A DNA stretch of 32,000 nucleotides from Phycisphaera mikurensis NBRC 102666 (lineage in GTDB: Bacteria > Planctomycetota > Phycisphaerae > Phycisphaerales > Phycisphaeraceae), in contig NC_017080.1 in the NCBI RefSeq assembly GCF_000284115.1, positions 3,720,001 through 3,752,000 of the forward strand, in the 5' to 3' direction. This document shows, in pieces, positions 2,143 through 29,688 of the stretch (positions are counted from its first letter, which is position 1; each line of letters opens with the position of its first letter). The notes beneath the pieces are model-generated. The model was not told where the DNA came from. It did not search any database and saw nothing but the letters and a program-made list of their open reading frames with translations. Made by a program: the position numbers and the translations under genes.

Positions 2143-2357
2143 GGGGCTCCTTCTGAGGGAACGAAGCGGCGGGTCGGCGTCTGGCCCCGGAGCAACACGC
2201 CCCGGCCGCCCGCGGAACGCCCTTCGACCCGCCCCGGCCCCCCCTTGAGCCACCCGGGCGAAAATCCTTAAATCAGCCGCCGGAAGTCCATCACCGCCCC
2301 GCGGTGGCCCCGCCCCAAGCCCCGGCGGCCCGGATCCGTGCGGCACCCGCCCGACCG

Positions 2358-2567
2358 CGCAGAGCCGCCACGCGCGTTCCTGCCACCAACTCCCGGACGC
2401 GCGGAGCCGACACGCGCGTTTCTGCCATTATCTCCCGGTCGCGAGGGGCTGCCACTCGCGTTCTTGTCGCAAACCCCCGGCCGCACGGAGCCGCCAAGCG
2501 CGTTATTGCCGCACGAATCCGGCCGCGGGGAGCTGCGCCGCGCGTTCGCCCTTGAGGTCGGCCCTCC
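2358..2567. repeat. Tandem array of five 42-bp direct repeats
   Basis: Units start at 2358, 2400, 2442, 2484 and 2526. CGCGTT is invariant at unit positions 16-21 in all five units. It is part of the 8-bp palindrome ACGCGCGT at 2370-2377 and 2412-2419. GAGC occupies positions 5-8 in 4 of 5 units and CCGG occupies 36-39 in units 1-4. Positions about 27-34 are variable. The array lies in the 684-nt divergent intergenic region. Confidence 0.85.
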
Positions 2568-2608
2568 TGTTCCTGCGCGTCCAGCCGCCGGCCGCAAGCG
2601 CCAGCCCC

Positions 2609-2654
2609 CCGCGGACCGCCCGCCGTTTCCGCCGTTCCGCCCCGCGGTCCGCGG
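2609..2654. repeat. IR10-N26 element copy A (CCGCGGACCG-N26-CGGTCCGCGG)
   Basis: Perfect 10-nt arms at 2609-2618 and 2645-2654. The complementarity extends to 12 bp (CCCGCGGACCGC / GCGGTCCGCGGG). The spacer 2619-2644 is 26 nt. Confidence 0.8.
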
Positions 2655-2826
2655 GCGGGAAGCCGTCCGCCGGGCACGCCACGCAGCGGGTGCCGCCCGG
2701 GGCCCTCAAAGCCCCGCCAAGCCGTGTGAGGCGTCTGCGGACCGGTCCCACCGCTGGCCTCCCTCTTCCGGCGTACCGTCTCCGCCGGAACCCGCGTCGT
2801 GCCCGCGACCAGAAAGGAGGCTGCTG

Positions 2827-3525
2827 ATGGCTCAAGTCGCAGGAAACGGGATCTACACCCTCCCGGAAGCCGCAGCGCTGATCGGGATGAAGGTCCCGAC
2901 GCTCCGCAGTTGGTTCCGTGACGACGGCCGCCGGCGGTCCCTGTTCCGCGGCGACTACCTCGCGGCCCGGGCCGGGGAGCGGCTGACCGCGCTCAGCTTC
3001 CACGACCTCGTGGAGGCGGTGGTGGCCGTCAAGCTCAAGGGGCTCGGCATGACGCCGCAGCGGATCCGGCGGACGCACGCGGCGCTCGCGGAGGCGTACG
3101 GCACGCCCCACCCCTTCGCCTACCGGGGCTTCTTCGTCAGCGAGAAGGCGGACCGGGTCTTCGCCGAGTTCCGGGAGGACGACCCCGGCGGGCCGCTGCG
3201 GGCGGGCTTCCTGGAGGTCGGCGCCGAGCAGCACGCGATCCGGGAGGTCCTGCAGCCCTTCCTTCAGCGGGTGGACTACGACCCGCGCACCGAGCTCGCC
3301 GCCCTCGTCCGCCTGACCGCGGACGGCTCGGTGCACCTCGACCCCGAGCGTGGCTTCGGCAAGCCGCTCGTGGCGTCGTGCTCGCAGCGGACGGCCGTCC
3401 TCCACGCCGCATGGCTCGCCAACGGGCGGGACGCACCGGTCGTGGCCGACTGGTACGGGGTGACGACGCCGGAGGTCGAAGCGGCGGTGTCGTTCCACGA
3501 GGACTTCCGGGGCCTCGCGGCTTGA
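2827..3525 (+). CDS. DUF433-containing, VapB45-like putative antitoxin/DNA-binding protein (N-terminal HTH plus C-terminal DUF433-like domain), 232 aa
   Basis: ATG at 2827 is preceded by a strong RBS (gaAAGGAGGctgctgATG). The N-terminus YTLPEAAALIGMKVPTLRSWF resembles a MerR/excisionase-type HTH. The C-terminus FGKPLVASCSQRTAVLHAAWLANGRDAPVVADWYGVTTPEVEAAVSF resembles the DUF433 pattern, from my memory of the family. The upstream in-frame part of track ORF 2338..3525 has weaker third-position GC. Confidence 0.65.
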   Translation: MAQVAGNGIYTLPEAAALIGMKVPTLRSWFRDDGRRRSLFRGDYLAARAGERLTALSFHDLVEAVVAVKLKGLGMTPQRIRRTHAALAEAYGTPHPFAYRGFFVSEKADRVFAEFREDDPGGPLRAGFLEVGAEQHAIREVLQPFLQRVDYDPRTELAALVRLTADGSVHLDPERGFGKPLVASCSQRTAVLHAAWLANGRDAPVVADWYGVTTPEVEAAVSFHEDFRGLAA

Positions 3526-3614
3526 GGTTCCTGTTCGACCGCAACGTGTCGGTGCACCTCCCCCGCGGCCTCCACCACTTCTGCCGCGACCACCTACCGT
3601 CGCCTCCGGCGTGA
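3522..3614 (+). pseudogene. Truncated remnant of a DUF5615/PIN-like toxin gene (about 30 codons)
   Basis: A TTG at 3522 overlaps the DUF433 stop in a TTGA junction typical of toxin-antitoxin operons. Its translation (M/L)RFLFDRNVSVHLPRGLHHFCRDHLPSPPA* matches only the first ~16 residues of the DUF5615 N-terminus, including the first acidic residue (FLxDxN). It then diverges and stops. Confidence 0.35.
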
Positions 3615-3648
3615 TCCGGGTGAGCCCGCAAGGTCGATGAGGTGACCC

Positions 3649-4845
3649 ATGACGCACGGAGACGCAGCCGAGACCGACAAAACCTCCGCCGGCGAGGCTG
3701 CGCGGTTTCTCGAGCCGCACCTCCGGGGCGGGAGGTTCGATGCCGACCCTCACGAGATTCCCAGCGAGTTCCTGAAGGACCTCGCCGTCCTCGAAGAGCT
3801 CGTCATCGAGACCGCCAAGTGGCGGCACCGCCAGATGCACCCGACGCGGCAGCGGACGGTTAAGAACTTCAAGCGGGGCGTCCGGCTCAACCTCACGGGC
3901 GTCGGTGAGGGCAGCGCGATTCCGCTCTTCCGGCTGCACCTCGACCCGGCAGCAAACCTCTTTGACGAGCAGCGGAGGTGCTTTGAGGAGGCGCGCCTCG
4001 CCATCGTGCAGACGCTCGGCTCGGCGTCCGAGGTGATCGACAAGGAGATCGGTCGGCTGCCGCCAAAGCTGCTGACCTACTTCGACCGCCTCGGGCGGAA
4101 CTTAAAGGCGGGTGAATCAATGGAACTGGGCGACGGGAGCGGGGCCGTTGGGCGCCTGACGCCGGAGCGGCGGCTGCAGCTGCTGCAGGATGCGCAGGTC
4201 AAGACCTACCGAAACGAGGTGACGCTGCTCGGCTCGATCCACAGTGGAGACAAGCTGAACGACACCTTCGAGCTGGCTGCCGACGATGGGAGGACCTTCC
4301 AAGCGCCTTGGCCCGCACCCTTCCGTGAGCAAGTACAAGAGGCTTGGAGAGGCTTTGAGGACGGCGTGCGCGTCAGCGTGCAGTGCGTCGGCGAGTTCAC
4401 CAAGGAGGGCAGACTCCAAAGGGTCGACTCGGTGGAGCAGCTCACGGTGCTGGATCCGCTGGACGTCGGGCTGCGCTTGGCCAGCTTCCACACCCTCGAA
4501 GACGGGTGGCACGACGGGGAGGGAAGTGCTTTGGACCGAGACGGCCTCGGTCGCCTGACGGAGGCTTTCGACCGACACTGGCCCGAAGACCTGTCACTCC
4601 CCCACCTGTGGCCGATGCCCGAGCCGGAGGCCGGCGGCGGGGTCCACGCCCAGTGGAAGAGCGGACGCCGCAGCGTCAGCCTCGAGGTCGATCTCCGCGC
4701 CTCCTCGGCCTACTTCACCAGCTTCGACCTCGACGACCCCGACCCGGAGGTCGGCGTGGAGGAGGAGGGCCTCGACCTGTCGCTCCCGGCGAGCTGGGAG
4801 CGGGTCGCGAGCGAGGTGCGGGGCTTCCTCGGGGGCGACGCTTGA
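3649..4845 (+). CDS. Hypothetical protein, 398 aa, no recognisable catalytic motif
   Basis: ATG is preceded by GAGGTGA (gatGAGGTGAcccATG). Third-position GC is high and amino-acid composition is balanced. G+C looks lower than in the core genes (for example ttaagaacttcaag). I see no Walker A, HNH or PD-(D/E)xK signature. Confidence 0.7.
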   Translation: MTHGDAAETDKTSAGEAARFLEPHLRGGRFDADPHEIPSEFLKDLAVLEELVIETAKWRHRQMHPTRQRTVKNFKRGVRLNLTGVGEGSAIPLFRLHLDPAANLFDEQRRCFEEARLAIVQTLGSASEVIDKEIGRLPPKLLTYFDRLGRNLKAGESMELGDGSGAVGRLTPERRLQLLQDAQVKTYRNEVTLLGSIHSGDKLNDTFELAADDGRTFQAPWPAPFREQVQEAWRGFEDGVRVSVQCVGEFTKEGRLQRVDSVEQLTVLDPLDVGLRLASFHTLEDGWHDGEGSALDRDGLGRLTEAFDRHWPEDLSLPHLWPMPEPEAGGGVHAQWKSGRRSVSLEVDLRASSAYFTSFDLDDPDPEVGVEEEGLDLSLPASWERVASEVRGFLGGDA

Positions 4846-5219
4846 GCCCTGAGAAGCCCCTGCACCGGTCGATCCACCCGACGAAGCTCGACCCCGTTGG
4901 GGCCATGGACTACCTCGCGTTCCGGCCCAACTCGGCGGACAAGGACCAGCTGTCGCTCTATGACGGTGATCAGATCGGGGCGGAGGCGGCTTGGCTGCAC
5001 CACACCCGCGACGGGGCACACTCGCACGGGATCGGGACCGTGACCGCCGCGGAAGCCACCGCCGCGGGGACGCCGGCCAGGAGCGACCCGGACGAGTTCC
5101 CCGAGCACGTTCTCGCCGACTTCTCGGCGCTGCCCGGACGGAAGGCGAAGCAGCGGGCCGCGGCGACCCTGTGCGAGGCGGCGAATGCCCGCGGGTGGTC
5201 CTTCCGGCCGGAGGCCTGA
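4842..5219 (+). CDS. Hypothetical small protein (125 aa from TTG 4842, or 104 aa from ATG 4905)
   Basis: It shares a frame with the tail of track ORF 4383..5219. TTG 4842 overlaps the upstream TGA in a TTGA junction. Third-position GC is high from 4905 onward (MDYLAFRPNSADKDQLSLYDGDQIGAEAAWLHH...). The start codon is uncertain. Confidence 0.5.
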   Translation: MSPEKPLHRSIHPTKLDPVGAMDYLAFRPNSADKDQLSLYDGDQIGAEAAWLHHTRDGAHSHGIGTVTAAEATAAGTPARSDPDEFPEHVLADFSALPGRKAKQRAAATLCEAANARGWSFRPEA

Positions 5220-5232
5220 CGCTGCGGCGGAC

Positions 5233-5253
5233 GCCCCGCTGTCCGGGCGGGGC
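5233..5253 (+). terminator. Short GC hairpin after the small gene; a possible transcript boundary before mod
   Basis: GCCCCGC (5233-5239) and GCGGGGC (5247-5253) form a 7-bp stem with a 7-nt loop. There is no U-tract. Confidence 0.3.
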
Positions 5254-5297
5254 TGGCGGGGCACCGAGGCGGCCTCGCGTTCCGGTAGCTTCCGCGG

Positions 5298-7553
5298 ATG
5301 CTCAACCTCTCGGACGCGGAGAAGCAGGAGGTGCTGCGGCACCTGGACGAGGGGCGGCCGCTGCCGGACCGGTACCGGTTCCTGCTGTTCGGCGACAAGC
5401 GGGAGGTGGAGCTGGTCTGGAACGGGAAGACCTCGGAGGTGTGCAACGCGGTGCTGCCCTTCCAGACAATCGAGCACGTGGACGAGCCGCGGACCGAGAA
5501 AGAGGTGGAGGTGCACCCGGGGCTGTTCGACACGCGGGGCCGTCAGGAGAGCGGGTGGAGCAACAAGCTGATCTGGGGCGACAACAAGCTGATCCTCTCG
5601 TCGCTGAAGAACGGGCCGATGCGGCGGGCGATCGAGGACGCCGGCGGGCTGAAGCTGATCTACATCGACCCTCCGTTCGACGTAGGGGCGGACTTCTCGA
5701 TGGACATCGAGGTGGGCGAAGGAGATACGCTCACGAAGCGAGCCTCCATCATGGAGGAGATTGCTTACCGCGATACGTGGGGAAGGGGCCACGACTCTTT
5801 CATCACAATGATCTACGAGAGGCTTGTGCTGATGCGAGGCCTGCTTGCTCCCACTGGAAGTATCTACGTACATTGTGATTGGCGCCTCAGCGGCTTGGTG
5901 CGAATGGCTATGGACGAGATCTTCGGCAGAAGCTCGTTCCAGAATGAGATTTCATGGTGCTACCGGGAGGCGATCAATTCTAAGAAGCGTTGGAATCGCA
6001 AGCACGATTCAATCCTCTATTACACAGCCGACCCTGTCGACTATGTTTTCAATCCTAATGAGGTGCTCCAGAAGCATTCGGCGGCAACAACGGCGAAGTA
6101 TAAACATATCGATGAAGAAGGAAGGCGCTACCGATTGATGGGGCGCGGCCTCGCCGGGAGCCCGATCAAGTCTGCACGAGATGTTTCGCCAGACTGGGAG
6201 GAGACACACCCAGATCTTGTCTATCGCCATTACCAGCGTGATGGAACGTATGCCGTCGACTACTGGAACATCGACATCATCAATCAGGCAGCCAATGAGA
6301 GGCTTGGCTACCCGACACAGAAGCCTGAAGAGCTGGTCGAGCGTATTGTTAAGGCTTCAACCAACCCCGGAGACCTCGTCGCCGACTTCTTCTGCGGCTC
6401 CGGCACCACCGCCGCCGTGGCGGAGAAGCTCGGCCGCAAGTGGATCGCCACCGACCTGGGCAAGTTTGCCATCCACACCACCCGCAAGCGGATGATCGGT
6501 GTGCAGCGTGAGCGGCAGGCTTCCCGCCAAGGTTTTCGGGCTTTCGAAATCCTGAACCTCGGCCGCTACGAGCGCCAGCATTTCGCGGGCGTCAACCCCA
6601 CGCTCCGCGAGGCGGAGCAGGCGGCCCAGCTGCAAGCCAAGGAAGAGGCCTTCCGCGAGCTGATCCTCCACGCCTACCACGCGGAGGCCACCACCGGCTT
6701 TCAGACCTTCCACGGCAAGAAGAACGGCCGGCCGGTGGCGATCGGCCCGGTCAACCGCCCGGTCTCGCGGCTCTTCGTGGAGGAGGTGGTCAACGAGTGC
6801 CGCCAGAAGAACCTCACCCGGTGCGACCTGCTCGGCTTCGAGTTCGAGATGGGCCTCTTCCCCCGCGTGCTCGAAGACGCCAAGGCCAAGGGCATCGACG
6901 TGGCGGCCAAGCAGATCCCCGCGGAGGTTTTCGACAAGCGGGCGGTGGACCGCGGGCACGTGAAGTTCCACGACGTGGCGTACATCGAGGTGGAGCCCGA
7001 AACGCGGACCGGCAGCCACAAGCACGGCCACGCCGCGGGCATCCGCGTGACGCTGGCTGACTACTCCGTCTTCTACTCGCAGGGTTCGGTCGACCGGGCT
7101 CAGGAGGAGTTCGGCGGCAAGAAGAGCGGCTCCAAGGTGGTCGTCGACAACGGGCAGATCGTGAAGGTGACCAAGGAGAAGAGCGGCCGCGTTCACACGG
7201 AGGTGCTGACCAAGCAGTGGACCGACTGGATCGACTACTGGTCGGTGGACTTCGACTACGAGTCGAAGAAGGAGGTGGTGCTGCGGCAGACCGCGGAAGA
7301 GGCCGGCCCGGCGGAGCAGGGGCTGAGCGCGTACGAGGAGGTCTGGACGGGCGACTACATCTTCGAGAACGAGTGGCAGAGCTTCCGCACCAAGAAGGAC
7401 CGCAAGCTGGACCTCACCAGCGCCTGGCACGAGGTGAAGCCCGGCAGAGCCGGCCCCCGGAAGGTGGCGGTGAAGGTGGTCGACATCTTCGGCAACGACA
7501 CCACGGCGGTGGTGGCCGTCGCGGCGCCCGAGCCGCTGAAGGAGAAGAAGTAG
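5298..7553 (+). CDS. mod: Type III restriction-modification system methyltransferase (Mod), beta-class N6-adenine/N4-cytosine DNA methylase, 751 aa
   Basis: Motif [15 protein letters not shown] (DPPF at nt 5667-5678) precedes motif [27 protein letters not shown] and [12 protein letters not shown]. This IV-before-I order is the beta-class order. The stop TAG abuts the ATG of the following res-like gene. Confidence 0.9.
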
Positions 7554-10235
7554 ATGGCTCTGCACCCCGACTTCCCTACCGACCCGCACGCGGTGCTCGA
7601 CCCGTCGGTCCGCTGGTTCCCCGCCGACGAGGCGCTCCGCGAGGTGGCCGCCAATCGACTGACCCCGCCGCTGGTGGCGGAGCTGCGGAAGAAGGTCCAG
7701 GCCTTCCGCGACTCCGGCTACGAGGGGGCGAGCGAGACGAGCCGTGCGCTGCTGCACTGGTGGTTCGTGGAGGAGCACCTGATCGCCCCGCACGACGGGC
7801 CGAGCTTCCGCTTCAAGTACTACTTCGCCCAGCGCGAGGCGATCGAGACGATCGTCTGGCTGACCGACGTGGCGAAGGTGCAGGACCCGGCGGACCTCCT
7901 GCGCTACGACGCGACGGGCGAGGTCTCCCGCAAGATGTTCGACGAGGACTGGCGGCGCTACATGGTGAAGATGGCCACCGGCAGCGGCAAGACCAAGGTG
8001 CTGAGCCTGGTGCTCGCGTGGAGCTTCTTCAGCAAGACCTACGAGGCCGACTCGCCGCTGGCGCGGAACTTCCTGGTGATCGCGCCCAACATCATCGTGC
8101 TCGACCGCATCCGCAAGGACTTCGAGGGGTTGACCATCTTCTTCCAGGACCCGGTGCTGCCCGAGAACGGCTTCCGGGGCCGGAACTGGCGCGACGACTT
8201 CCAGCTGACGCTGCACGTGCAGGACGACGTGCGCGTGCGGCAGCCCACCGGGAACATCTTCCTCACCAACATCCACCGCGTGTACGACGGGGCCGACGTG
8301 GAGGCGACGGCGGAGGACGAGGACACGATGGACTACTTCTTCGGCAAGCGGCCGACCGGGGCGACCAACGACAGCAAGGTGGACCTCGGCGAGGTGGTCC
8401 GCGACATCGACGAGCTGGCGGTGCTCAACGACGAGGCCCACCACGTCCATGACAAGAAGCTGGCGTGGTTCAAGTCGATCCAGGACATCCACAACCAGCT
8501 GGTTCAGAAGGGCGGCGTGCTCTCGCTGCAGGTGGACGTGACGGCCACGCCCAAGCACGAGAACGGGGCGATCTTCGCGCAGACGGTCTCTGATTACCCG
8601 CTGGTGGAGGCCATCGCCCAGGACGTGGTGAAGCATCCGGTGCTGCCCGACGCCGCGAGCCGGGACAAGCTGGAGGAGCACCAGACGACGCGCTTCACCG
8701 ACCGGTACGCCGACTTCCTGGAGCTGGGCGTGCTGGAGTGGCGGAAGGCCGCGGCCGAGCACGCGAAGGCGCGCAAGAAGGCGATCCTCTTCGTGATGAC
8801 CAACGACACGAAGAACTGCGACGAGGTGGCCGCCTGGCTGGAGCGGCACAACCCCGACCTCGCCGACGCGGTGCTGACGATCCACACGAAGAAGACCGGC
8901 GAGGTGAGCGAGGCGTCCAGCGGGAAAGCCGCCGACGAGCTGGCGGACCTGCGTCGCCAAGCCAACGGCATCGACCGGGCCGACAGCCCCTTCAAGGCGA
9001 TTGTCTCGGTGCTGATGCTTAAAGAGGGCTGGGACGTGAAGAACGTCACCACGATCGTCGGCCTGCGTGCCTACTCCGGCAAGAACAAGGTGCTGCCCGA
9101 GCAGACCCTCGGCCGCGGCCTCCGCAAGATGTACGGCGGCGGGCTGGAGGAGCGGGTGAGCGTGGTGGGCACGCCGGACTTCATGGAGTTCATCGAGGGC
9201 ATCCAGCAGGACGGCGTGGAGCTGGAGCGCTCTGCGATGGGCACCGGCACCCCGCCCGCGGCCCCGCTGGTGGTGGAGGTGGACACCGAGGACGAAAGCA
9301 AGGACATCGACGCGCTCGACATCGAGATGCCGGTCCTCGCGCCCAGGTACCGCCGCGAGTACCACAATCTCGGCGACCTGGACCCGGCGACGGTGCCGAT
9401 CCACCCCGTGACGTACCAGCGGTTCTCCGCGGAAGAGCAGCGGGAGATCGTCTTCAAGGACATGGCCACCGGCGGCGTGACGCACACCACCCGGCTGGAC
9501 GGGGCCGGCGTGGCCGACCACCGCCGCGTGCTCGCGTGGTTCACGCAGCGGCTGCTCACGGACCTGCGGCTGGTGAGCGGCTTCGACGTGCTCTACGGCA
9601 AGGTAAAGGCGGTCGTCCGCGACCGGCTCTTCGGCGGGACGATCGATCTGGAGGACCCGAACACGCCGCGGAACCTGTCCGAGCCGGCCGCGACCAAGTC
9701 GCTGCTGGACGCGATGACCAAGGGGATCAACGAGCTGACGGTGCAGGAGTCCGGCGACGCCGAGATCCGCGACACGATCAAGCTGCGGACCACGCGGCCG
9801 TTCATGGTGAAGAGCCAGGACTTCGTGGCGGCGAAGAAGAGCGTCTTCAACCGGACGATCGGGGACAGCGGGCTGGAGCTGCGCTTCGCCGAGTGGCTCG
9901 ACGGCTGCGCCGACGTCGCCTCCTTCGCGAAGGTCTACCTCGCGGTGCCCTTCACGCTCGACTACGTGAAGGCCGACGGCGACCTCTCGACCTACCGGCC
10001 CGACTTCTTCGTGAAGCTCACCGACGGCAAGAGGTACGTGGTGGAGACCAAGGGCCTCGAAGACGTGGACGTGGCCCCGAAGATGGCCCGACTGAAACAG
10101 TGGTGTGAGGACGTGGGCCACGCGAGCCCGCCGTGGGAGGTGGGCTTCGTCTACGTGGACGAGGACGGCTTCGACGAGCACCGGCCCAAGAGCTTCGCGG
10201 GGCTGGTGGAGGGGTTCCGGGAGTTTCAGGACTGA
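7554..10235 (+). CDS. res: Type III restriction enzyme Res subunit (SF2 helicase plus C-terminal PD-(D/E)xK-like nuclease), 893 aa
   Basis: Motifs: Walker A MATGSGKTKV; DEAH box LNDEAHHV; helicase C-terminal block LMLKEGWDVKNV; C-terminal YRPDFFVKLTDGKRYVVETKG (D...E.K nuclease-like). The start is directly adjacent to the mod stop (tagATG). Confidence 0.9.
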   Translation: MALHPDFPTDPHAVLDPSVRWFPADEALREVAANRLTPPLVAELRKKVQAFRDSGYEGASETSRALLHWWFVEEHLIAPHDGPSFRFKYYFAQREAIETIVWLTDVAKVQDPADLLRYDATGEVSRKMFDEDWRRYMVKMATGSGKTKVLSLVLAWSFFSKTYEADSPLARNFLVIAPNIIVLDRIRKDFEGLTIFFQDPVLPENGFRGRNWRDDFQLTLHVQDDVRVRQPTGNIFLTNIHRVYDGADVEATAEDEDTMDYFFGKRPTGATNDSKVDLGEVVRDIDELAVLNDEAHHVHDKKLAWFKSIQDIHNQLVQKGGVLSLQVDVTATPKHENGAIFAQTVSDYPLVEAIAQDVVKHPVLPDAASRDKLEEHQTTRFTDRYADFLELGVLEWRKAAAEHAKARKKAILFVMTNDTKNCDEVAAWLERHNPDLADAVLTIHTKKTGEVSEASSGKAADELADLRRQANGIDRADSPFKAIVSVLMLKEGWDVKNVTTIVGLRAYSGKNKVLPEQTLGRGLRKMYGGGLEERVSVVGTPDFMEFIEGIQQDGVELERSAMGTGTPPAAPLVVEVDTEDESKDIDALDIEMPVLAPRYRREYHNLGDLDPATVPIHPVTYQRFSAEEQREIVFKDMATGGVTHTTRLDGAGVADHRRVLAWFTQRLLTDLRLVSGFDVLYGKVKAVVRDRLFGGTIDLEDPNTPRNLSEPAATKSLLDAMTKGINELTVQESGDAEIRDTIKLRTTRPFMVKSQDFVAAKKSVFNRTIGDSGLELRFAEWLDGCADVASFAKVYLAVPFTLDYVKADGDLSTYRPDFFVKLTDGKRYVVETKGLEDVDVAPKMARLKQWCEDVGHASPPWEVGFVYVDEDGFDEHRPKSFAGLVEGFREFQD

Positions 10236-10258
10236 CGCGAGGAGAGCGGGAACGTGCG

Positions 10259-11308
10259 ATGACGAAGGCTTCGAAGAGGTTGATGAGCCCCGCGATGATC
10301 CGGGCGAGGGCCAATGTTGTGGCACTCGGTTACCGCGCGTCGGTCGTGGACCAGTGGCCGGATCGGCAAGTGGACGCCGCTTGGCGGCTCTTGCAACCGC
10401 TGTTCGTGCTGCGCGTGGCGACGCGGCTGAGCCCCCACGAAGCGGCCTGGCGGGACCAACTCAATGACGCGGTGGCTCGCAATCTCCCGCTGCTGAAGGG
10501 GTCGCAGGCGAACTGCATCGCTTGCGGATCGAAGGTCGGCTGGGGGAAGCTGAAGCGGCACCTGTTCGAACGCTGCCGCGCCGTGCAGGGGGCGACGCTG
10601 CGAGGAGGGACGGGCGGCAAAGCAATTCTTTCGGTGGCGGTAGAGGCTCCGCGGCCAGCGAAGCCGTCGCCTCGCGCGACGTCGGGACGTCGACGCAGAG
10701 AAGCACGGATCAGCACCTATGACGGCACCCGCGTAGAGGGCGACGACCCCGGAAGAGACCGAGGCACGGACCGGACACCGGACGGCCAGGACTCGCTCAC
10801 CATCACGTCCGCCGAGGAGAAAGCCGCGGCAACAGCCGGCCGGGCCTCCGGGCGTCACACCGCGCAGCAGTACATCACGCTCATCGACCAAGGCTACGAC
10901 GGCGACGAGGTCAAATCCTGGACCTTTTACCACGCGAAGAAGGTGCTTGACCACAACGCCACGCACGGCGTGCCGGCCTCGGCGAAGCGGAAGCGAGAGG
11001 AGCGGGAAACGCGGAGGGAGGCGATCCGGGCCGCGCTGGCCGCGGAACAGCGAGACGACAGGAGGCGCCCTACCTCTTCAATCGTCGGCCGAACGTCGGT
11101 CGCCATCAGGACTGGGTTCGCTCGATGCCCCAGCTGCGGCGTGGAACTCAAGCGCAAGAACCTGCGGGTCCACATGAGGAAGGTTCATCCCGTTCACGCG
11201 ACAGAGCTTCCACCCCCTCCGGCGGCTGGCCCGACGAAGAAGGCGAAGTCGAAGCGGAGGAAGCGGAAGATCATCAGGCACGGGCCACTCACCACGCCGA
11301 AGGAATGA
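10259..11308 (+). CDS. Hypothetical protein with two C2HC/C2H2-like zinc-finger motifs and a Lys/Arg-rich tail, 349 aa
   Basis: ATG at 10259 lies 23 nt after the res stop, with GAGGAG upstream. Finger 1 is CIACGSKVGWGKLKRHLFERC (nt 10514-10576). Finger 2 is CPSCGVELKRKNLRVHMRKVH (nt 11126-11188). Both have the spacing C-x2-C-x11-H-x4-[C/H]. The middle is charged and looks disordered, and the C-terminus is PTKKAKSKRRKRKIIRH. Confidence 0.6.
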   Translation: MTKASKRLMSPAMIRARANVVALGYRASVVDQWPDRQVDAAWRLLQPLFVLRVATRLSPHEAAWRDQLNDAVARNLPLLKGSQANCIACGSKVGWGKLKRHLFERCRAVQGATLRGGTGGKAILSVAVEAPRPAKPSPRATSGRRRREARISTYDGTRVEGDDPGRDRGTDRTPDGQDSLTITSAEEKAAATAGRASGRHTAQQYITLIDQGYDGDEVKSWTFYHAKKVLDHNATHGVPASAKRKREERETRREAIRAALAAEQRDDRRRPTSSIVGRTSVAIRTGFARCPSCGVELKRKNLRVHMRKVHPVHATELPPPPAAGPTKKAKSKRRKRKIIRHGPLTTPKE

Positions 11309-11403
11309 TCTTCGCGTGGGTGTGCGCAAGACGAGCGCGAGCGAAGGGTCCGCCTCTGCGGAGAATCTCGACCGCACCACGCGAGCGCTGTACGCCGCGG
11401 ATG

Positions 11404-11449
11404 CCGCGGACCGTCGCAGCAATCGGTAGGAAGGTTCAGCGGTCCGCGG
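11404..11449. repeat. IR10-N26 element copy B
   Basis: CCGCGGACCG at 11404-11413 and CGGTCCGCGG at 11440-11449. The spacer 11414-11439 is 26 nt. It lies about 96 nt downstream of the zinc-finger gene stop. Confidence 0.8.
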
Positions 11450-11484
11450 AAGCAGCCGCAACGCGAACCCGCCGCGGAGGACGC

Positions 11485-11880
11485 ATGCCACACGCTTTCG
11501 AGGAGATCCGCGACGCGATGCGGGAGTGGACGCCGGGGTTTCGGCCGGATTGGTTTCGGCGGAAGATGGGGGGCCAGCCGCCGGAGGGCGAGGAGATCCT
11601 CGCGGGCTTCGACGAGGCGTTCCCGCTGCTGTGCTTCACGGCTACGCGGATGCTGTTGGGGCGGCGGCGGGGCTTGTTCTTCCCCTCCTGCGACGTGACG
11701 AGCGTCCACTACCGGGAGGTGGCCGGCTTCGAGACGCTGGAGCGGGGCGGCGTCGGCCGCCTGCCGCTGCTGGTCGTCCGCGACACCGGCGGGGTGGAGC
11801 ACGACGTGATGCCTGGAGGCCGGGCGCACCTCCACGCGGCCGCCGCCTGCCTCACCCTCGGCGTGGAGTCGACGACCTGA
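11485..11880 (+). CDS. Hypothetical protein, 131 aa
   Basis: This is the internal ATG of track ORF 11125..11880, preceded by GGAGGA (gcGGAGGAcgcATG). Third-position GC is high. The sequence begins MPHAFEEIRDAMREWTPGFRPDWFRRKMGG...; I recognise no family with confidence. Confidence 0.5.
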   Translation: MPHAFEEIRDAMREWTPGFRPDWFRRKMGGQPPEGEEILAGFDEAFPLLCFTATRMLLGRRRGLFFPSCDVTSVHYREVAGFETLERGGVGRLPLLVVRDTGGVEHDVMPGGRAHLHAAAACLTLGVESTT

Positions 11881-28830: not shown

Positions 28831-29688
28831 ATGACACGCTCTTCCCGGGCTTCCGGCGCCTTCACCCTCATCGAGTTGCTCGTGGTGATCTCCATCATCG
28901 CGCTGCTCATCGGCATCCTGCTGCCGGCGCTGGGCGCCGCACGCGAGACGGCGCGGACGGCCGCCTGCTTGTCGAATCTGCGGCAGGTTTCGATCGGCAC
29001 CTACGCCTACGCGACCGATTCGAGGAGCTTCGTCGCCCCGCCTTCCGAGGACAACACCCGCAAGATCGGCCCGCAGGGCTTCGCCGGCGTCTACTGGTGG
29101 AACCGCCTGGACGAGCTCGACTACGTGCAGGCCACCGAAGGATTCGACTCGGGCTTCATGTGCCCGGCGGGCCTGAAGGAGGTCGCCAACACCTCGCTGG
29201 GCGGCCCGAAGAACTGGTTCGACCCGCCGCTGTCGCAGACCGACGAGCACGGGGCCCGGTACGTCGCGGAGTTCGACATCCGCAACACCCAGCGGCAGGC
29301 CAACAACTACGGCTACAACGCCTACGACGGCGGCTTCGGCGACTTCAACTGGGGCGGCAAGAACATCCGCAGCTACTTCCCCGCCGCGATCATCCCGGTG
29401 AGCGGCCGGAACCACCAAGCGAGCCTCGACGCGGTGAAGGACCAGACCACGCTGCTGCTCGCGTTCGACGGCCTCATGTTCTTCCGCGCCGACAGCAACC
29501 GCCTCAACCGACGCCACGCCGGGGGCAGCGTGATGAACGCGTCCTACGTGGACGGACACGCGAGCAGCGTGGTCGCGGGCGCGATGCCGACGGACGACGA
29601 CCCTTCCTTCCCCGGCTACACCGCCCCCAAGCTCGCCAACGAGGGCAACGACTGGGACTTCCGGGTCATCGTCAAGAACCCGTTCTGA
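28831..29688 (+). CDS. Prepilin-type N-terminal cleavage/methylation domain protein (DUF1559-like pseudopilin), 285 aa
   Basis: [26 protein letters not shown] is the N-methylation motif plus hydrophobic helix. The C-terminal H-x(n)-DG-like motif is [15 protein letters not shown]. Confidence 0.9.

Follow-up and report, generated by a model that had tools for sequence, protein, structure and literature searches.

The stretch of DNA considered here, called the window throughout, is 32,000 nt of the Phycisphaera mikurensis NBRC 102666 genome (assembly GCF_000284115.1, contig NC_017080.1, positions 3,720,001 to 3,752,000 of the forward strand). Near its beginning, two overlapping genes, designated A and B, are found a short distance upstream of the mod and res genes of a Type III restriction-modification (R-M) system (Table 1). 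They belong to a two-gene cassette catalogued as PDC-M32, where PDC stands for "phage defence candidate." Both proteins match the corresponding PADLOC-DB v2 models essentially from end to end: residues 18–392 of A align with positions 4–369 of the 375 in PDC-M32A (PDLC04575; E=1.4e-115), and residues 1–122 of B with positions 1–121 of the 123 in PDC-M32B (PDLC04579; E=7.4e-37). The gene arrangement is also that of the family, with A followed directly by B on the same strand and a 4-nt overlap between them. The copies from which PDC-M32 was defined are nested in Type I R-M, BREX, or DISARM systems, whereas the window copy is un-nested and upstream of Type III genes; such nesting was a criterion of discovery and is not needed for membership. 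On every testable point of membership, the comparison identifies the window pair as a complete copy of PDC-M32. It belongs to a divergent branch, with ~40% identity to most other members. Both proteins also match PHROG families (A, phrog_30544, E=9e-49; B, phrog_31579), each of unknown function.

An earlier reading of the window without database searches (the sequence-only reading) had given coordinates for the two open reading frames (ORFs), a TTGA stop/start junction between them, and a Shine-Dalgarno site for the first, all of which were confirmed in the sequence. The last base of the GAGG core of this site lies 6 nt ahead of the ATG at 3649. B is read in a frame that stays open over 4383–5219 and has two candidate starts, a TTG at 4842 and an ATG at 4905. 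The TTG, giving a protein of 125 aa, is preferred because position 1 of the PDC-M32B profile aligns with the residue it encodes, because the close relatives P0019 and P0020 are also 125 aa long, and because an NTGA overlap is found in 65 of 79 homologous loci. Relative to a pair with 87% identity, A has a ratio of nonsynonymous to synonymous substitution rates (dN/dS) of 0.14, and B one of 0.22. Both genes are under purifying selection and clearly coding, as had been supposed.

Table 1. Features of the PDC-M32 locus in the window (positions are those of the window).
Feature	Position	Strand	Remarks
Gene A (PDC-M32A family)	3649..4845	+	ATG start, 398 aa
Gene B (PDC-M32B family)	4842..5219	+	TTG start, 125 aa, putative effector
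TTGA overlap, A stop TGA/B start TTG, predicted translational coupling junction	4842..4845	+	
Shine-Dalgarno-like GAGGTG 5' of gene A	3639..3644	+	read from sequence
GC hairpin in B-mod spacer	5233..5253	+	present; unsupported as terminator
Type III mod (N6_N4_Mtase), context outside cassette	5298..7553	+	Pfam PF01555, E=7e-44
Type III res (ResIII helicase, C-terminal endonuclease-like region), context outside cassette	7554..10235	+	Pfam PF04851, E=2e-15
DUF433/MerR-like helix-turn-helix (HTH) protein, context	2830..3525	+	weak Pfam matches: DUF433 E=0.012, MerR_1 E=0.019
30-aa ORF, remnant of PIN-like toxin, context	3522..3611	+	PIN_10 positions 1-22 of 84, E=0.012

The sequence-only reading had presented the pair as undescribed, which it is not. 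It corresponds to cassette CAS_00128, entered as "Assign as candidate PDC-M32" in supplement file 8 of Payne, Hughes, Fineran & Jackson (2024, bioRxiv 10.1101/2024.01.29.577857), and is included under that name in PADLOC-DB. That study took its candidates from among genes lying inside BREX, DISARM, and Type I R-M systems; those tested were the Hma-embedded HEC candidates alone, of which seven of nine were protective (10.1101/2024.01.29.577857). A later study of eight PDC/HEC candidates, a set outside which PDC-M32 falls, found protection for four (PMC12881386). The sole other main-text mention of PDC-M32 found is a PADLOC match in a Sinorhizobium meliloti prophage (PMC12429752). The window pair is one more member of a catalogued candidate family, in one of its less common contexts.

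To survey the conservation of the pair, an alignment of A homologues was used to scan the GTDB representative genomes. Of the 161 loci found, the 80 best were retained. These span more than 15 phyla in a patchy distribution that includes Planctomycetota, several classes of Pseudomonadota, Acidobacteriota, Chlorobiaceae, Desulfobacterota, Verrucomicrobiota, Bacteroidota, Firmicutes, Gemmatimonadota, and Latescibacterota, among others. B is directly downstream of A in 79 of the 80. The A stop and B start codons share a 4-nt overlap (ATGA, GTGA, or TTGA) at 65 of these 79 loci, the TTGA form seen in the window being present also in L012 and L013, and there are overlaps of 8 or 11 nt in eight more. 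Neighborhoods found with B as the seed agree: all five distinct loci have an A-like gene of 289–384 aa, without a Pfam match, directly upstream of B. The shortest of these, at locus L087, is truncated to 289 aa and stops ~150 nt short of B. The one exception among the 80 is L046 (7986–9164), where A is kept with a rearranged C-terminus and B is lost; in L036 (8001–9686) both genes are broken. No locus with B only was seen. Such an asymmetry would be expected if B were harmful in the absence of A, but the sample is tiny and A-seeded. By these comparisons A-B is an obligate, translationally coupled pair that moves horizontally as a unit, in agreement with the earlier suggestion of a coupled, self-contained two-gene unit.

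To compare gene neighborhoods, ORFs from the 80 loci were clustered, clusters were named with Pfam, and hidden Markov models were built from the HsdM, HsdS, and HsdR clusters. These three are the recurrent neighbors of the pair, and Type I genes flank it in 32 of the 80 loci, with hsdM-A-B-hsdS-hsdR as the usual order. At least 18 loci have the pair strictly between hsdM and hsdS and on the same strand; in three others it follows hsdM-hsdS, and in another three its neighbor is a Type I operon in convergent orientation. At seven loci (L017, L020, L004, L007, L042, L063, and L066) the hsdM stop codon overlaps the A start and hsdS begins where B ends, 347–374 nt past the A stop. This hsdM-A-B-hsdS chain of 4-nt overlaps implies that the cassette would be co-translated with the Type I methyltransferase genes. 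Also embedded with the pair in Type I operons are RhuM, Abi_2, FRG, and CAP12-type TIR genes; these occupy the same niche in the same orientation and often adjoin it, but are unrelated to A or B in sequence or fold. RhuM, catalogued as PDC-S05, confers protection on E. coli against phages T4, T5, and T7 (PMC12881386).

Same-strand nesting of this kind, and the overlap chain in particular, could be read as marks of an R-M accessory or guard, with A and B contacting R-M subunits and being released in the manner of PrrC, or else modulating restriction or methylation (alleviation, subunit assembly). The pairs in the window and at locus L086 (below), both upstream of N6_N4 methylase/ResIII genes, could be read in the same way. 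The precedent is the anticodon nuclease PrrC of the Type Ic R-M operon EcoprrI, silent under EcoprrI and freed when a phage anti-restriction factor strikes the R-M enzyme (10.1101/2024.01.29.577857). Like A-B when nested, PrrC is a non-R-M cassette co-oriented in an hsd operon, and the two share a plausible second-line response should restriction fail. PrrC is, however, a single protein with ABC-type ATPase and anticodon-nuclease domains, while searches of A and B with Pfam and PADLOC found no NTPase, known nuclease, or PrrC match. It is also almost exclusively embedded (10.1101/2024.01.29.577857), unlike A-B, for which the available flank is free of hsd genes at 48 of the 80 loci, and of which both close and distant relatives occur with no R-M neighbor of any type. 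Association with Type I, Type III, Type IIG, and non-R-M surroundings alike argues against a specific protein partner, and a guard or accessory role is considered unlikely.

Among the immediate neighbors in the hsd-free loci, a minority are other defence genes recognized by PADLOC (Avs4, Type IIG, Type III methylase, MzaA, and MADS). Of the surveyed loci, L050 alone has a Type III mod homologue nearby, ~2 kb downstream, and PADLOC finds a single Type III methyltransferase among the neighbors of the non-Type-I loci. Type III adjacency as seen in the window is rare, and the characteristic partner of the family is Type I R-M, with the pair nested between hsdM and hsdS. The proposal that the pair is linked to R-M and defence genes is borne out strongly by the Type I genes at 32 of 80 loci and by the other defence genes, but with Type I rather than Type III as the typical partner. 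The relative with 87% identity (L083) has the S10 ribosomal-protein operon and a C5-methylase island as neighbors, without Type III genes, and B-seeded copies from Gimesia and Maioricimonas are in ordinary chromosomal, non-defence contexts. The cassette as compared across genomes is autonomous from any particular type of R-M system and mobile, with a strong but non-obligate preference for R-M and defence loci. Autonomy is concluded from comparative genomics, since L083 lacks mod-res and other copies have no R-M genes, and not from features of the spacer between B and mod. We hold this autonomy, along with the identification as PDC-M32, with high confidence.

The spacer features had been offered in the sequence-only reading as signs of a self-contained unit; the unit itself stands on the comparisons above, but these signs do not. 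The spacer is 78 nt long (5220–5297). Its predicted RNA folding is no stronger than that of dinucleotide shuffles (z = -0.45, with 59 of 200 shuffles folding equally well). The hairpin within it has no T-tail and is not reported by a terminator scan, and the proposed -10 hexamer, TAGCTT, is not picked up by a consensus promoter scan. Neither feature is above chance.

Several other neighborhoods place the pair among toxin-antitoxin and defence genes. In L086 (4178–11885) a DUF433 gene is followed by A, B, a gene for a pentapeptide-repeat protein, and one for a 1373-aa fused N6_N4 methylase/ResIII protein, with a CBASS pair (SMODS and S_4TM) and an AAA_15 ATPase gene upstream. The grouping of DUF433, PDC-M32, and methylase-helicase genes, common to this locus and the window, may be a recurrent one. 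The L087 pair shares a decaying Type I operon with HigB, and in three Lentisphaerae loci (L088–L090) DarT-Macro (DarTG) genes are found ~5 kb downstream. One of the latter, L089, also has a group II intron reverse transcriptase gene and a Fic-like gene nearby, and is a toxin-antitoxin and defence island. Distant variants are found on the Limnohabitans plasmid pTEGF4, amid RelE/ParE and VapBC modules, and on Rhodococcus plasmids, 3.5 kb from a methylase/helicase pair.

Company of the kind seen on pTEGF4 is what might be expected of a purely selfish addiction module, that is, a toxin-antitoxin pair that stabilizes mobile islands and plasmids, rides along in R-M operons, and plays no part against phages. 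The architecture of two overlapping genes, the patchy spread over more than 15 phyla, the lower-GC surroundings in the window (below), and the one locus where B is lost and A kept, with no B-only locus seen, would all suit such a module. The same features fit abortive infection equally, however, and many toxin-antitoxin modules defend; embedding in a defence operon predicts defence well, judging by the 7/9 and 4/8 candidates validated; and no toxin fold was recognized in either protein. Addiction without defence is rated somewhat less probable than a guard role.

A tblastn search of 50,697 phage genomes found no copy, and most copies are chromosomal. Both observations tell against a function in counter-defence or superinfection exclusion for a phage or other mobile element, for example with an acidic A protein as decoy or DNA mimic, and an anti-restriction gene co-oriented inside an hsdM-hsdS operon would defeat itself. 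The PHROG families for both proteins, the match in the S. meliloti prophage, and the strongly acidic character of A (median net charge -19) are in its favor, but we regard it as very improbable.

Protein B has 3225 homologue clusters at 90% identity, all of ~125 aa and all named hypothetical. An AlphaFold2 model built from a 93-sequence alignment predicts a compact alpha/beta protein (pLDDT 96.4, pTM 0.89). Compared with the PDB by Foldseek, the model has no fold match (best E=0.6, TM≤0.35), the sequence profile has no match to PDB sequences at E≤10, and no Pfam family recurs at E≤10 when the 93 homologues are scanned one by one. Polar residues R9, D33, S38, D82, H89, and R117 are invariant, H12, R28, and D93 nearly so, and the invariant residues persist in the plasmid variants at 23–31% identity. 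Such conservation is more in keeping with a small enzyme than with a scaffold. The median isoelectric point (pI) of the family is near neutral, at 6.6.

Two more specific readings of B were tried and set aside. A papain-like Cys-His-Asp triad (C72, H89, D93) was rejected because the Cys found at residue 72 (~5055–5057 in the window) in at least 90% of the family gives way to Ala or Phe in the plasmid variants and the window clade, Ala being the residue in the window clade. The placement of R9, S38, and E88-H89 on strands 1, 2, and 5 resembles the R-S-E arrangement of ADP-ribosyltransferases, but this likeness is unsupported: the hhalign probability of a match to the DarT of L088 is 0.3%, and Foldseek finds no ADP-ribosyltransferase. 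The B proteins of the window clade also depart from the consensus at further near-invariant positions, including T5, Q10, Q17, T30, P31, and K32.

The A family is of similar size, with 3723 representative clusters at E≤1e-3, nearly all of ~375 aa. The AlphaFold2 model of A, built from a 17-sequence alignment, has a mean pLDDT of 80 and three regions: an N-terminal alpha/beta region (~16–155), a central OB-fold (~185–267) in the form of a barrel of five strands into which a helix is inserted, and an alpha+beta domain at the C-terminus (~273–394) that holds a conserved L-x-D-G-W-x-D-G-x-G motif (GWxDGxG core). Foldseek gives no full-length match in the PDB or BFVD. Local matches to the OB-fold have probabilities of ~1.0 but E-values of 5e-3 to 0.1; they include IF1, CspA, the anticodon-binding domain of class IIb aminoacyl-tRNA synthetases, SSB/RPA, and the OB domains of DNA ligases. 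The viral matches are uncharacterised proteins, the best being an unnamed Myoviridae protein (E=1.6e-7). As with B, the A profile matches no PDB sequence at E≤10. The family as a whole is acidic, with a median pI of 5.0; in the window protein, the OB and C-terminal regions have pI values of 4.75 and 4.3, and the N-terminal one 8.0. Residues invariant even in variants at 21–25% identity include R29, S89, E156, R175, and W287. Pfam finds no HTH, ribbon-helix-helix, AbrB, or Macro domain in A. A search for fusions among the 150 best A representatives found just two outliers in length, P0148 (564 aa) and P0282 (422 aa), with no Pfam domain in the extensions. In single-sequence Pfam and NCBIfam searches, A and B had only noise-level hits (Hera_DD, TPR_25), so that the earlier failure to find a recognizable motif in either protein stands.

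In overall plan the pair resembles toxin-antitoxin and abortive infection (Abi) pairs such as DarTG, AbiE, and those of RelE type, which are likewise overlapping two-gene operons found in toxin-antitoxin and R-M surroundings, and include a small protein with invariant polar residues, as B has. It differs in the sizes of its products, with a gene for ~375 aa first and one for ~125 aa second, which is unusual for such pairs. The defining features of DarTG are lacking in both proteins, given the hhalign result for B and the absence of a Macro match in A. The likeness of A-B to type II toxin-antitoxin systems is in operon architecture: none of their toxin families (RelE, MazF, PIN, HEPN, Doc, ADP-ribosyltransferase, and others) was found in A or B by Pfam, NCBIfam, PDB sequence, or Foldseek-PDB searches.

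The reading we prefer, at about an even chance of being correct, is that A-B is a self-contained defence module resembling abortive-infection or toxin-antitoxin systems, in which A senses or neutralises and B is the effector. In the window the cassette would have been acquired with or beside the Type III mod-res genes, in an islet of lower G+C content. The two proteins would be produced at a set ratio and would assemble into a complex. The sensor or neutraliser would be A, a large acidic protein that combines an OB-fold with two uncharacterised domains, and the enzymatic effector would be B, with its constellation of R9, D33, S38, D82, H89, and R117. B would be released or activated on phage infection, or when the neighboring R-M system fails or is inhibited; alternatively the trigger might be a nucleic acid bound by the OB-fold of A, or loss of R-M function. 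Active B would damage a host or phage macromolecule, and the infection would be aborted. The pair would then be a second-line module, analogous to the Abi and toxin-antitoxin cassettes nested in R-M operons.

Several observations weigh against this interpretation. No recognizable toxin, nuclease, NTPase, or NAD-processing domain was found in either protein by Pfam, NCBIfam, PDB, or Foldseek searches, and no functional study or experimental report was found in the literature on PDC-M32 under that name. The immediate neighbors in the 48 hsd-free loci are mostly miscellaneous or housekeeping genes. A near-neutral B and an acidic OB domain in A are atypical of nucleic-acid-binding proteins, and a 375-aa "antitoxin" with no recognizable DNA-binding repressor domain is atypical for a type II toxin-antitoxin system. 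The casting of B as effector and A as sensor or antitoxin, drawn from size and conserved residues, is guesswork.

The different parts of the proposal differ in how far they can be trusted. For an anti-phage function of the PDC-M32 pair as such, the case is evenly poised, in keeping with the rates at which sister candidates were validated (7/9 and 4/8). The specific assignment of roles, with B as effector and A as sensor or neutraliser, is tentative and rather doubtful. A further step, in which B has a new enzyme fold and is the effector of an autonomous abortive-infection system, A is a new kind of OB-fold sensor, and nesting between hsdM and hsdS provides a back-up to restriction, triggered for example by anti-restriction proteins that disable the R-M complex, is speculative and probably not correct as stated.

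The base composition of the locus is consistent with acquired DNA. The G+C content of the window is ~0.74 in the flanks and 0.58–0.68 across 3500–11500; because of this dip, A-B, the Type III mod-res genes, and the following ORF are suggested to form a horizontally acquired islet. Besides its helicase match, res has weak RE_endonuc and TnsA-like matches in Pfam. The ORF directly after it (10133–11308, 391 aa) has no Pfam match and may belong to the same islet as A-B and mod-res. It contains two similar zinc-finger-like motifs of the form Cys-x2-Cys...His-x3-4-(Cys/His), CIACGSK...HLFERC and CPSCGVE...HMRKVH. Upstream of A, the region 2830–3611 resembles a decayed DUF433/PIN-like toxin-antitoxin pair, as judged by weak Pfam matches, which agrees with the decayed toxin stub noted earlier. 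A 42-nt tandem repeat (2356–2547; 4.6 copies, 72% matches), within very GC-rich DNA upstream of the HTH gene, yields repeated peptide motifs inside a long ORF, 2338–3525. Far downstream, at 28831–29688, is a gene for a protein with a prepilin-type N-methylation motif and DUF1559, a combination typical of Planctomycetota; the high G+C content and the numerous planctomycete homologues likewise point to that phylum.

For annotation, the window pair should carry the label PDC-M32 (candidate), which a PADLOC run alone gives at once, and should not be counted as a fresh discovery. The family is nevertheless a large one, with 3723 representative clusters for A, more than 3200 at 90% identity for B, and a range of more than 15 phyla. 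Its size, the lack of recognizable domains, and a confident model of B with no PDB match make it a reasonable target for experiment. If the R-M back-up reading were true, R-M guarding would have a second mechanistic example besides PrrC, and one unrelated to it. If the pair defends against phage, bacterial immunity would gain both a sensor and an effector chemistry that are new, and the pair could help to explain why such cassettes are nested within R-M operons.

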